Origin: Octopus vulgaris
Lineage: Eukaryota
Direction of reading: 5' to 3'
Length of the DNA stretch: 64,000 nucleotides
Assembly: GCA_951406725.2 (NCBI GenBank)
Contig: OX597829.1
Span: 5,766,001-5,830,000, forward strand
Shown here: positions 10,143 through 43,770 of the stretch, one piece after another
Layout of the letters: every line of letters begins with the position of its first letter
How positions within the stretch are numbered: the stretch's first letter is position 1
The notes under the pieces: generated by a model
What the model saw: the letters and a program-made list of their open reading frames with translations, nothing else
Databases searched by the model: none
What the model was told of the DNA's origin: nothing
Position numbers and translations under genes: made by a program

Positions 10143-10342
10143 CTGTAAAAATAATATGTAACAATTATTCGGGAGCCAAGATAAAACTCTGAGTTTCGGA
10201 TGCCGAAGTGGAAATCCACAACACCATCTCTTCGGTTATCTGGCCATCTACCGAAGAGGTGGTGTTATGGATTTCCACCTCGGCATCCGAAACTCAGAGT
10301 TTTATCTTGGCTCCCGAATAATTGTCACATATTATTTTACAG
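10143..10342. repeat. ~95 bp-arm inverted repeat with hammerhead-like motif on each arm (Penelope-like end)
   Basis: Arms 10143-10236 and 10250-10342 are reverse complements. Each carries CCGAAGA...CATCC-GAAA-CTCAGAG-TT. A related fragment is at about 6250-6313. Confidence 0.85.
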
Positions 10343-10999
10343 TTATATATATATATACATATATATGCGTATGTATGTGTATATATATATATACATATAT
10401 ATGCATGTGAGTGTGACTGTATGTGGTATATACACATACGCAGACACACACACACACACACACACACACACACACACACACACACACATATATATATATA
10501 TATATATTTATATATACATATATATGCGTATGTATGTGTATATATATATACATATATATGCATGTGAGTGTGACTATATGTGGTATATACACATACGCAG
10601 ACACACACACACACACACACACACATATATATATATATATATATATATATACATATCTATACACACACATACGTTTACATACAAAGATATACATATGCAC
10701 TTATTTATATGACACAAACATTTATTCATATTTCCCTATATAGATAGATATGCATTTTTATATATTTTACCTATGATTATCTATATATACAATCAAATTG
10801 TATAAATCGCTGTATCCCTTTGTGTGTCTCTCTTCATATACATACATACATACATACATAATATATATATATATATATATATATATATATATATATATAT
10901 ATATATATACATATACATATATATATATATATATATATATATATATATATATATATATATATATATATATATATATATATATATATATATATATATTAA

Positions 11000-11465
11000 T
11001 GTGCGAGTTGGACGTGGCTAACCTCATCTGTGTTCCTTGCCGCCAGTTAGGTCCTGTTGGAACTCTGGAGATCGTGTTTTGTTTTGAAGACACCTACATC
11101 ATGTGTAGGTTTTTCAAGTTTAGTGATAGGATATTGAAGATCTGTAGGCACTTGAAACCCAAACTTTTCAGTACCTAATCCTGACTCTTGATGGCAATAT
11201 TGAGGGTTTTTGGTACTCTGCAATGGTGCTCTTCTGCTGTCAGTGCCACTAACAATTCCAAAGTTCGGTAAAGTTCCTCCAGGATTTTCCAGACGTTCTC
11301 GGGAGTAGAATCTTAACTTTATCAATTTCTCCCAGTAGCTGACATTCAAACTGAGACAATCCACTTTGTGTAGCTTCACTAGATTGCTTCGAGCTCCGTC
11401 GTTAAGTTTAGTTGTGGTGGCCATATTTGGGAGCAGAATCCATTTGGCCAATCGTCTGAATTTTA
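11000..11465 (-). mobile_element. CR1-like LINE 3' fragment (degenerate ORF2 C-terminus)
   Basis: Minus-strand translation includes SYWEKLIKLRFYSRER and DVGVFKTK...SRVP across frameshifts, typical of the post-RT C-terminus of CR1-group LINEs. Confidence 0.75.
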
Positions 11466-11614
11466 TTGCCAGCTAAGTAAAATGCACATAAAAAAATACA
11501 TCCAGTATATATATAATATAAATGCTTAAGTTTATACATATATGCATGCATATATATATACATAAATATTTCTATTCTATATATATATATATCTATAATT
11601 GTCTACTTATGTGT

Positions 11615-11855
11615 GGATCTATCTATCTATCTATCTATCTATCTATCTATCTATCTATCTATCTATCTATCTATCTATCTATCTATCTATCTATCTATCT
11701 ATCTATCTACCTATCTATCTATCTATCTATCTATCTATCTATCTATCTATCTATCTATCTATCTATCTATCTATCTATCTGTCTGTCTGTCTGTCTGTCT
11801 GTCTGTCTGTCTGTCTGTCTGTCTATCTATCTATCTGCCTATCTGTCTGTCTGTC
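11615..11855. repeat. (TATC)n/(TGTC)n microsatellite
   Basis: Visible tandem repeat. Confidence 0.97.
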
Positions 11856-13189
11856 CATATATCACTGTATACATAAATAGACATGCGTGCGCACACACAT
11901 ACCAACAGCAGCAGCAGCAGCAACAACAACAACAACAACAATAATAATAACAATGATGGTTATTACCGTTAATTGTTTATATATTAATATATATATATAT
12001 ATATATATATATGTCTGTGTGTGTATTGCTTTACATAGACCTATTCATATTTCAACTTCACTGATTAGTAACCTTTGCATACATACATACATACATACAT
12101 ACATACATACATACATATATACATACATACATACATACATACGAAGCCATGATAGATCGTTAGCTCCTACACGCATTTTTCTCTCCTTTTTTTTTTTTCT
12201 GTGTATCTTTCTGTTGAAGAGCGTAGGCTCGAAACGAGACTTGTTCTATTTCTATTCCTGAGCGCCATACTAATACATTTGTTTGTTTGTACTCCACCTG
12301 CCTTCGTCTTTCGTTATATATATATATATATATATATATATATATAAAATATATATATTTGTAATCACCCCATTTGTCGTATGGTTAACACCATATAGAT
12401 TTCCGGTGCATCCTAGTTAAGGACCATATTCATGTGAATTCTAAAGAATTCACTAGAATCTCAATTACTTAACCGTATATATATATATATATATATACAT
12501 GCATTCGGTGATGCGCATATTTATTTGTATGTATGTTTGGTATGTTTGATTAGGTACAGAGATGCTCAGCGGCTGAGAGTTCCGTCCATTGGCAATAAAC
12601 GGAAATCTCAGCCCTCGAATATCACCGTTTCTTTTAGTGATTAAGCATCGGAAATGTGTATAGAGACAGGTTTGGTATTCTCTTATCCTGTTTGCGCCAT
12701 CAATCATAAGTTTTTATGGTTTTATATATGAGTATATATATATATATATATATATATATATATATATAAGGATATGTAAATATCAATATACAGTTCATTC
12801 AGATGGTAAAAATGACAACCGATGTTAGTGTATTTACGTCCCCGTTCGACAAAATGACCCAACAGAAAATGTACAAGGCTTACAAAGAATAAATCCTCGG
12901 GTCGGTATATATATATATATCCATACATGTATATATATATATGTATATATATGTATGTATATATATATATATATATATATATATATATACATATAAATAT
13001 ATATATATATATAGTTATATGTATACATATATATTTATATGTATATATATATATGTGTATGTATATTTATATGTATATATATAAGTGAATGTATATATAT
13101 ATATATTTACACACACACACATATATATATGTATATACATATATATGTATATATATACATATATTTGTATATATGATTGTATGTATTTG

Positions 13190-13390
13190 TGTGTCCGTGT
13201 CTATGTTTGTCCCCATGCCGCCGATGCTGGTGTGCTTATGTGCACGTAACTTAACGGTTCGGCAGAAGAACCCGATAAAAAAAGTACTAGGCTTAGAAAG
13301 AATAAGCCGTGGGATCAATTTCCTACACTAAAAGCCTTTAAGTTGGTTCTCCAGGAAGACCGCAACTTATAAGCTAAAGCAATTAAAATA
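13190..13390 (+). mobile_element. SINE family A, 3' half
   Basis: ccgatgctggtgtg...gtaacttaacggttcggca...agtactaggctta matches 22456-22600. Confidence 0.8.
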
Positions 13391-40950: not shown

Positions 40951-41904
40951 TACATATGTTTGTGTGTGTGCAGATATGTGTGCCTTTATATGTAGATATG
41001 GGAAGTTGATTTTGTGATGTTGTGAGGTGTAACTCGGTGCAACTCAACGGGATCCTGCTCTGCAGTATATTGGTAAAAGTGTCTTAGAATATTGTCTCTG
41101 CTCTACGAATAATTTTTGACAGAAAGTTGACATGGTGTTTGAAAAATAGTTCACATTTTTGTATAGATCCGCGCACATACACACACATACACACACACAC
41201 ACACATGCACAGGCATACACAAACTGATACACATATGTATATACACACAGACATGCATTCACACACATACACACATACATTTATACAAATCCTATTATCG
41301 TTGTACATAGTACAGACAAGTATTTATGAGATGTATGCATAAAGCATGTACGTATACAGATTTGTATATATATATATATATATATATATATACATTTATA
41401 CACACACAGGCGTACATTCATATACACAGGGGTACAATATTACAATATTGGTTAAATATTGTCCCATATGTGTTCTCGCTTTTACATTTGCTTTTCTTGA
41501 ATAGCTTCAAACACCATTGATATATATATATATATATATATATTTATATATACATATGGATAGATAGATAGATACTTACATATAAGAAAGAGGGTATGTA
41601 CGCCGCTATATATATATATATATAGGTAAACGTTAAAAAAACACAAACTGGGACAAGAACGTGAAACATTTTGAAGACGACAAAAAACACATATATATAC
41701 ATACACTAAATACATATATATACATACATATATATATATATATATATATATATATATATATATATATATATATATATATATATACGTCAGTGTATGTCTT
41801 TATACATACGAGTCTATATACATAGTACATAGTTAGATATATATCTTGACTGTTAGAAAATCCAGCATTAGAAATAGATAGCTATTCAATTGTTGGTCGA
41901 ACAG

Positions 41905-42150
41905 AATATCATGCTGGCGGACTAACTCATTTTCTTCACTGGTCTACCTCTAGATATTTCGAAGTTAGAATCCAAGTGATTCATTCTGTGACAAATTTGA
42001 ATCCATTGAATTATATCTGCAATCCATCTGATCTGCTTCTTTACAGTTCCTGTGAATGCCTTTGCACTAACTGTAGTGTATGATATTCTTGCAAGAAATT
42101 TTGAAACGGTATCGAAACATGACCTGGTGTTTGCGATCATCCTATTATGA
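41905..42150 (-). mobile_element. RTE-like LINE C-terminal fragment (decayed)
   Basis: Minus ORF ...KFLARISYT...KKQIRW...RMNH...RGRP resembles the post-RT region of RTE-clade LINEs. Confidence 0.5.
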
Positions 42151-42334
42151 TGTTGCAACGTTTAATATGCATACATGCATGCTTATATGAGCACACTTAC
42201 GCGCGCGCACACACACACACCCACACACCCACACACCCACACCCACACACACACACACCTAGAAATATGAAAATGAAACAAAAACGCAATTCGGACAGTA
42301 GGCGATACAAAGGTGGACAAGATAAACAACAATT

Positions 42335-42745
42335 ATATCTATCTATCTATCTATCTATCTATCTATCTATCTATCTATCTATCTATCTATCTATCTATCT
42401 ATCTATCTATCTATCTATCTATCTATCTATCTATCTATCTATCTATCTATCTATCTATCTATCTATCTATCTATCTATCTATCTATCTATCTATCTATCT
42501 ATCTATCTATCTATCTATCTATCTATCTATCTATCTATCTATCTATCTATCTATCTATCTATCTATCTATCTATCTATCTATCTATCTATCTACCTATCT
42601 ATCTATCTATCTATCTATCTATCTATCTATCTATCTATCTATCTATCTATCTATCTATCTATCTATCTATCTATCTATCTGTCTATCTATCTATCTATCT
42701 ATCTATCTATCTATCTATCTGTCTGTCTATCTATCTATCTATCTA
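42335..42745. repeat. (TATC)n microsatellite, ~410 bp
   Basis: Visible tandem repeat. Confidence 0.98.
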
Positions 42746-43440
42746 AGAGATATCCATCTATCTACTATGGTATCTCTTAGATGCCCTATATATATATATA
42801 TATATATAAATAATTATTACCTGAAGAGATACCATCACTACTGGTGGTATCTCTTAGATGCTCTAAATTATAATTTAAATATCGATCTTACCTTTGAAAG
42901 GTTTTTATCACTAACTGGCCACATGATAATATCGGTATATATATATATCGATCTTATATTATATATATATATATATATATATATATATATATTGATAGAT
43001 ATATATATAATATAAATGGGTATCAAATGAATTGATACCTGTATATCTTGTTACTATATATTTTGTTCACCTACCCTGGGATGTTAACGTCGGAAATATT
43101 ATAGAATGTATTTTTATGTAAAGTACATTTCTGAACATCTAAGGGGGGATCTCTTCACTAAGTTAGATTTTGCTATATAGATATATACTGCAAGAACATC
43201 AAGTGCAAACACTTCTGCACAGAGTTCGATATTCACCTGATGCTGTTTTGGGCGCGCACATTAGATCGAACTAATAAGGTACCTCAATTCAAGTACCTAA
43301 TTCAACTGAATTTTTATTTTTATATATATATATATATATATATATATATACACATACATACACATATATATACATACATACATACATACATATATATCCA
43401 CACACACGCACACATACACACACACACATATACATATATA

Positions 43441-43770
43441 TATTGTTGGTGTTCACTTGTTTCAGTTTTATTTCATATTCATTGCATCTCAGCCGACAGC
43501 TGTTTCGTCACACTCCTGCAACCTCATCTATGCCCTTTTCCTTTCGTTTTTTCGTCTTTTTTTCTGTCTCTCCTTGCTAATGATCTTCCAAATACAAAAT
43601 GGCAGATCGTTAGGAAGGAGAGACACACACAAATAAATAAATAAATAGATAATGAAAGAAAGAAGAAAGTGAAGGACCACTGATGAGGTTACAGAAGTGT
43701 GACGAAAGAACTCTGGCCGAAATACAAATAATATGAAATAAAACTGAAGCAAGTGAACACCAAATATATA
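43441..43770. repeat. Old inverted repeat with a decayed hammerhead on each arm
   Basis: Outer ends ttggtgttcacttgtttcagttttatttcatatt and aatatgaaataaaactgaagcaagtgaacaccaa are complementary; centre near 43595. Left arm (-): TAGATGAGGTTGC..GTGACGAAACAGCTGTC. Right arm (+): CTGATGAGGTTAC..GTGACGAAA. Confidence 0.8.

Follow-up and report, generated by a model that had tools for sequence, protein, structure and literature searches.

The subject here is a 64,000-nucleotide stretch of Octopus vulgaris DNA (assembly GCA_951406725.2, contig OX597829.1, positions 5,766,001 to 5,830,000 of the forward strand), called the window below, and six short inverted repeats within it, IR1 to IR6, most of which bear motifs of the hammerhead ribozyme (HHR). 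The repeats are very probably 5'-truncated remnants of the pseudo-long terminal repeats (pseudo-LTRs, pLTRs) of several families of Penelope-like retrotransposons (PLEs). The window is AT-rich, animal-type DNA in which 27,036 of the 64,000 bases (42%) are masked as simple repeat, and no Pfam match at curated thresholds was obtained in its 105 reading frames of at least 50 amino acids. Arm coordinates and identities were taken from pairwise alignment of the arms, identity being given as identical over aligned columns.

10140-10236 and 10250-10345: IR1, identity 91/97 columns, spacer 13 nt
10143-10236, minus strand: IR1 left arm, decayed type I hammerhead with core CCGAAGA at 10229-10235, stem I intact
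10250-10342, plus strand: right arm of IR1, U4C core as on the left (10251-10257), a (TA)n run immediately at its end
18414-18480 and 18627-18692: IR2, identity 49/68 columns, spacer 146 nt
18414-18692: IR2 as a whole, heavily decayed, CTGATGA at 18561 (plus), palindromic helix III in the left arm (minus), no flanking TA run
19660-19790 and 19902-20030: IR3, identity 108/131 columns, spacer 111 nt, strong part 19660-19770 and 19920-20030
19660-19770, minus strand: IR3 left arm, core TTGAGGA, 5' strand of stem I missing
19771-19919, plus strand: IR3 spacer, not self-inverted (267/500 shuffles as good)
19920-20030, plus strand: IR3 right arm, complete type I hammerhead, core at 19922, predicted cut after 19998, TA run at its end
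22821-23012 and 23021-23212: IR4, identity 185/192 columns, spacer 8 nt, the youngest repeat
22821-23020, minus strand: IR4 left arm, complete hammerhead, core 22936-22942, predicted cut 22870, with 23013-23020 as its own 5' overhang
23021-23220, plus strand: IR4 right arm, complete hammerhead, core 23091-23097, predicted cut after 23163, (TA)n end, no tail
29032-29076 and 29079-29124: IR5, identity 40/46 columns, spacer 2 nt
29032-29124: IR5 as a whole, 45-bp palindrome next to (TA)n in which no hammerhead could be demonstrated
43437-43590 and 43600-43770: IR6, identity 127/174 columns, spacer 9 nt
43443-43766: IR6 as a whole, right arm with CTGATGA (43680) and stem II, left arm with palindromic helix III, a TA run at each end

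The six inverted repeats are genuine mirror-image DNA, as an earlier note on this DNA had held. In the window masked for simple repeats they score 39-326, above every one of 30 shuffles (maximum 31), and 16 inverted matches score at least 30, compared with a shuffle mean of 0.17 (30 shuffles). Arm identity across the six is 72-96%. It was also found, by self-comparison of the window and by pairwise tests, that none of the repeats matches another; hence they are independent, in agreement with the same note. No direct repeat of any arm was found in the self-comparison, and a non-LTR retrozyme, which would consist of head-to-tail units with an HHR, was rejected as a candidate on that ground.

A type I hammerhead descriptor (score at least 11, with 20 shuffles as control) gave six matches in the window and none in the shuffles. 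These are the IR3 right arm, both IR4 arms and the solo motifs at 15821 (plus), 37256 (plus) and 50493 (minus); a stricter version also picked a solo motif at 506 (minus). The complete type I hammerhead, with its short palindromic helix III, is present in only three of the 12 arms (IR3 right, IR4 left and IR4 right), is partial in IR1, IR2 and IR6 and is absent from IR5, where only a GAAAC pentamer occurs. The earlier claim of an HHR in both arms of all six was therefore overstated, being borne out in full for IR4 and for the right arm of IR3. In IR1 each arm holds the two halves of the core, with CCGAAGA (U4C) and with U at position 17. In IR2 and IR6, CTGATGA is restricted to the right arm and the palindromic helix III to the left; a CTGATGA-like match in the IR2 left arm was not significant (161/500 shuffles). 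The architecture is of the PLE type, with a long stem II, a 2-bp helix III and a palindromic or near-palindromic loop. On folding against shuffles, a hammerhead-like fold was clearly supported for one of eight motifs only (IR4, z = -4.26, single-strand folding). Rfam gave no match at the gathering score at these motifs and no hammerhead match at E ≤ 10 at IR4 or IR6, and the IR4 motif had 0 matches in one metagenome scan. An Rfam E-value scan of 9000-45000 returned mostly microsatellite microRNA matches, with one hammerhead (HH9, 37238-37308) among the 150 rows listed of 723.

Solo ribozymes are about as frequent as paired ones: at least four complete examples have no partner, and decayed ones were seen by eye near 12208 and 63078. 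The solo type I motifs at 506 (minus), 15821 (plus), 50493 (minus) and 63078 (plus; decayed, seen by eye only) belong to other, unrelated families. At 12200-12460 (plus), the decayed hammerhead-like motif near 12208 is followed by (TA)n and then by a tail-like repeat as at 31403-31480 and 34755-34845. A compact type I hammerhead with a C3U change lies at 37232-37395 (plus) and corresponds to Rfam HH9 (E 2e-6, below the gathering score). Within about 70 nt after this motif there is sequence like the 3' tail of the commonest repeat of the window, which resembles a short interspersed nuclear element (SINE); the two may form a SINE-like element headed by a ribozyme, or may adjoin by chance.

Both orientations were scored blind for 17 repeats, with 150 shuffles each. 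The set comprised 13 of the 16 matches scoring at least 30 and four weaker ones, two dispersed SINE-like pairs and one duplicate partner being left out. An outward hammerhead core (p ≤ 0.05) was found in seven of the 17, namely IR1-4, IR6 and two added repeats that are outward on the CTGANGA half alone.

26295-26580: added inverted repeat, CTGATGA (26440, minus) in the left-arm overhang, without a GAAA half, and with a related solo copy at 47735-47905
46067-46277: added inverted repeat, decayed, CTGANGA outward in both arms (46145, minus; 46199, plus), no GAAA half

An inward core at the same level was found in one of the 17 (17056-17239), with a low score and at about chance level, and IR5 gave no hammerhead signal, outward or inward. 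The earlier note had placed the HHR on the minus strand in the left arm and on the plus strand in the right, 3' ends outward, in all six repeats; the outward geometry stands for five of them, the exception being 29036-29120 (IR5). The outward bias is genuine yet conditional, given the solo ribozymes that have no partner. Among further inverted repeats, those at 20497-20584 (flanked by TA runs on either side), 17056-17239, 48629-48866 and 32763-32847 have no convincing hammerhead core in either orientation. Two related small hairpins at 42741-42860 lie astride a TA run, the right one beginning with CTGAAGA, inward-pointing and without GAAA.

A TA run lies no more than 8 nt from at least one end in five of the six repeats, against a null expectation of 3-6%, and target site duplications (TSDs) are unreadable within the (TA)n flanks. 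Opposite the TA end there is a one-sided extension of 64 nt in IR1, 94 nt in IR3, 147 nt in IR4 and 75 nt in IR5. For the extensions of IR1, IR3 and IR6, but not for that of IR5, homologs were found at other places in the window.

10080-10142, minus strand: one-sided 3' extension (tail) of IR1, about 64 nt, with a homolog inside 21836-21905 (0/500 shuffles)
19566-19659, minus strand: one-sided extension of IR3, about 94 nt, its end like the copy ends near 31403-31480, 34755-34845 and 43283-43318
22675-22820, minus strand: optional tail of IR4, about 140-147 nt, ending at (TA)n, joined to the arm in other family copies
6240-6315, minus strand: third copy of the IR1 family, 5'-truncated, flanked by (TA)n runs on both sides, 10 nt (6306-6315) of adjoining upstream element sequence being inverted
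34696-34850: short palindrome with 30-bp arms, the left arm ending at TA and the right arm bearing a tail

The palindrome at 34696-34850 is distantly related to the 3' part of IR3 (0/300 shuffles against IR3 left). Pairwise tests of IR3 left with 12359 and with 12210, of 34703 with 43130, and of IR5 with IR1, IR2 and IR3 were not significant. The IR3 spacer is probably the right arm's own upstream sequence, the stem I strand being intact on the right only. Presence and absence of a tail were both observed in the IR4 family, the other repeats being suggestive only.

The IR4 sequence or part of it is present in 20 of 24 listed public sequencing runs, from four organisms, none of these being on record as RNA. 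Contigs from four of the 24 runs were aligned on 22676-23045 (1721, 2122, 1327 and 61 contigs); the results refer to the rows listed, beyond which lie 62 variant rows and 264 loose ends. The IR4 family is abundant. In the three larger runs the summed depth drops by a factor of about 20 to 100 immediately 5' of the core, depth being no measure of copy number and divergence possibly contributing. Loose ends were observed behind 23017/23020 in all three, i.e. the family extends beyond the centre of IR4. Since the element continues past this centre, this centre marks a point of truncation, and the 8 nt of the spacer belong to the left arm as an overhang. What looks like the left flank adjoins the arm in other copies (loose ends at 22809-22816, with 18 reads in run X2 and 22 in run X5 among those listed; records 10 and 19), and three X2 reads among those listed end in a microsatellite at 22824, without the tail. 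The family has two alternative outer ends, and its tail is optional. In run X4, head-to-head junctions were found at other points (record 19, 22988|22926; a loose end at 22807 into about 22862), together with one opposite-strand joint of ambiguous orientation. With its open centre, other junctions and two outer ends, the IR4 family shows the breakpoint variation within one family that had been suggested as a check.

Pooled, unphased variants of the family preserve pairing at 22929/22888 (stem II) and 22947/22865 (stem I), and the core is free of variants among the 40 variant rows listed of 102. Self-cleavage of the IR4 hammerhead is predicted from the fold and this pooled covariation. The two arms have the same alleles at 13 of 17 variant sites checked and therefore go back to one template or one source element, which does not separate the models discussed below. 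Four of the seven differences between the arms are left-arm changes away from the other copies.

The PLE origin, proposed in the earlier note and supported by the architecture, the variable centre and the tails, is deduced from the build of the ribozymes, the truncation, the tail and the target site rather than from a protein link. A 5'-truncated head-to-head inverted copy with a variable junction was found (7/17 outward and 1/17 inward; IR4 family), as was the AT-rich or (TA)n target, five of the six repeats adjoining a TA run. Also supported are a variable centre in place of fixed terminal inverted repeats (TIRs) and a mode of formation that needs no transposase. The repeats are most likely dead insertion scars and not a working two-ribozyme device, because a read-through transcript would hold one sense ribozyme paired with an antisense copy.

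On the mechanism, a PLE origin combined with twin priming, in which the two nicked strands of a (TA)n target both act as primers, is given about an even chance, and twin priming is preferred over a fold-back. The element's endonuclease would nick both strands of AT-rich DNA. Each nicked 3' end would then prime complementary DNA (cDNA) near the 3' end of the element, one at the end of the tail and the other at an AU-rich spot located at the pseudo-LTR end. The two cDNAs would stop early, usually near the ribozyme, and the joining of their unfinished ends would leave the 3' ends of the element on the outside and place variable 5' breakpoints at the centre. It was reported that a PLE protein from anole nicks and extends both strands in vitro from the same two reverse transcriptase (RT) start sites, that it prefers AT-rich DNA and that it is a predicted dimer (PMC11167929). 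IR3 has its tail on the left arm and the longer, intact 5' part (stem I strand) on the right, and it counts for twin priming because the two are on different arms. The inversion at 6306-6315 is exact over 10 nt to the adjoining element sequence (background for at least 8 nt, 65/11315) and starts at the TA target; it counts for twin priming because the loop that a fold-back would retain is absent.

A fold-back, in which the second arm is copied from the first by self-priming of cDNA or antisense RNA at a short palindrome and the process is completed by annealing to the TA target, would also imply a PLE origin and is possible, though less probable. Its antisense RNA version was proposed in the discussion of Arkhipova et al. 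(2013; PMC3846280). The short spacers of IR1 (13), IR4 (8), IR5 (2) and IR6 (9) speak for it, as do micro-palindromes at the centres of IR1 and IR4 and the fact that the right arm of IR4 is a subset of the left with the same minority alleles. Under it, tail and 5' overhang should both lie on the arm that was made first; therefore IR4 fits and IR3, each arm of which appears to hold sequence missing from the other, does not. The loop missing from the 6306-6315 inversion and the extension of both strands by the anole protein in vitro (PMC11167929) also argue against it, so that the fold-back in second-strand synthesis suggested earlier suits IR4 and sits poorly with IR3 and 6306-6315. Several points weigh against twin priming or the PLE origin. 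IR4, with tail and 5' overhang both on the left arm, is equally compatible with a fold-back; X2 and X5 contigs show a hairpin centred almost as in IR4, from the same locus or from a recurrent fold point; and the IR3 argument concerns one locus, where a later deletion could mimic the pattern. The other head-to-head junctions come from a single, possibly RNA, run (X4), library artefacts can create fold-backs, and no opposite-strand joint occurs among those listed in the three larger runs. Only the IR4 tail was seen joined to an arm in other copies, the tails are 64-147 nt long compared with a published 30-40 bp, IR5 and the two added repeats (26295-26580, 46067-46277) lack a full core, and none of the 105 frames has an RT or GIY-YIG match in Pfam, which remnants need not retain.

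It is improbable that solo PLE remnants became palindromes only afterwards, through template switching in replication or through break repair close to fragile (TA)n runs, and independently of retrotransposition. The ten of 17 tested repeats that have no outward core, the internal 34-bp inverted duplication of another family (27975-28045) and the 42% of simple repeat in the window are in keeping with such a process, but it should yield both orientations, where seven outward and one weak inward were observed, and should often duplicate flanking DNA, where the short arms stop at TA runs. True DNA miniature inverted-repeat transposable elements (MITEs) of a Tc1/mariner-like kind with a TA target, having hammerhead motifs in their long TIRs or captured by them, are very unlikely. 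Although the palindromic form and the TA flanks resemble such elements, and TSDs could be present inside (TA)n, no sequence is common to the six repeats and one-armed solo copies exist. One of these, the truncated 6240-6315, shows that ends are not fixed among copies of the IR1 family either; for IR4 the MITE reading is largely refuted, since the family passes the centre and has two alternative outer ends in place of fixed ends and internal structure. Artefacts of assembly or read fold-back are hardly credible: none of the aligned contigs covers 23027-23045, so that the centre of IR4 itself is without independent confirmation, but the arms differ by 4-28%, the IR4 differences fall on both arms and the outer flanks are not mirrored. 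Twin priming is retained as the preferred mechanism. That it is the normal route to PLE inverted repeats, an AU-rich site in the RNA fixing the short end, in a genome very rich in open reading frame (ORF)-less palindromic scars of many families, is put forward tentatively, at slightly less than even confidence.

The SINEs and the microsatellite load of the window resemble those of an octopus genome. Other features of the window were recorded as follows.

14304-14711, 19347-19557, 22226-22629, 24032-24347, 25010-25482 and 37759-38122: bipartite SINE-like repeat with a central TA/TG microsatellite, present in many copies
22082-22175, 27950-28095 and 39850-39950: repeats of one family, about 125 bp long, in which GCCGAAA precedes CTGAAGA, not folding as a hammerhead
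54000-56000: sole GC-rich stretch of the window (43% GC, CpG-rich), its reading frames without Pfam match

The middle copy of the GCCGAAA/CTGAAGA family bears the internal inverted duplication mentioned above. A type II hammerhead was considered for this family (22082/28060/39881) and rejected by eye, as stems I and II fail to close; the family could be a half-core remnant of the Naiad type (lead from PMC8557442).

The way in which PLEs form inverted repeats is listed as unresolved by Craig et al. (2021; PMC8557442), and this is the step addressed by the present examples of a published geometry, which are the main yield. Where a short scar has a tail on one arm only, twin priming can be separated from a fold-back by a simple count of cases in which the tail and the 5' overhang lie on the same arm. 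If the reading is true, the insertion step is recorded in palindromic scars, from which twin priming can be told from self-priming. There is a risk that repeat pipelines class palindromes of this kind wrongly as DNA MITEs.

Both the head-to-head geometry and opposite-strand ribozyme pairs are already published, and the repeats described here are new, unusually short examples. Head-to-head was the commonest arrangement observed by Arkhipova et al. (2013; PMC3846280), and self-priming was proposed. A literature search, with poor coverage of subscription journals, did not find twin priming for PLE palindromes, or these families. The inverted pseudo-LTRs of endonuclease-bearing PLEs (PMC3846280; PMC8557442) are alike in having a 5'-truncated head-to-head inverted copy, a short palindrome at some junctions, an optional tail at one end and AT-rich or (TA)n targets that mask TSDs. 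They differ in that no ORF or direct pLTR lies between the arms here, the arms are only 45-200 bp long, and the extensions are 64-147 nt and not 30-40 bp.

The long stem II, 2-bp helix III and palindromic loop of PLE-type HHRs were described by Cervera and de la Pena (2014; PMC4209133), who also reported pairs of minimal HHRs on opposite strands, 100-700 bp apart. The paired HHRs of Schistosoma mansoni are likewise of type I minimal style at such distances and on opposite strands, in variable families with a palindromic helix III, and most motifs there are solo remnants of truncated PLEs; unlike here, pair orientation and mechanism are not stated in the part of that paper cited. In 5' inversions of L1 by twin priming (Ostertag and Kazazian 2001, as cited in PMC2246262), both ends of the break prime cDNA on the RNA, and the 6306-6315 inversion is of this form. 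L1 differs in that an internal segment is inverted and the 3' end is not duplicated; here the 3' region is usually common to both arms, for which two templates or strand displacement would be required. Non-LTR retrozymes (bioRxiv 10.64898/2026.07.22.740005) are likewise type I HHR repeats that lack ORFs and are related to PLE pLTRs, but they form head-to-tail tandem arrays and not the inverted pairs and solo copies of the window. The Poseidon element PAc of Anolis (Frangieh et al. 2024, PMC11167929) shares two RT start sites that define the tail, AT-rich cleavage, nicking and extension of both strands and an HHR near the pLTR end; its two-strand extension is not tied to genomic inverted repeats in the main text of that paper, and no ORF start was found inside the arms described here.

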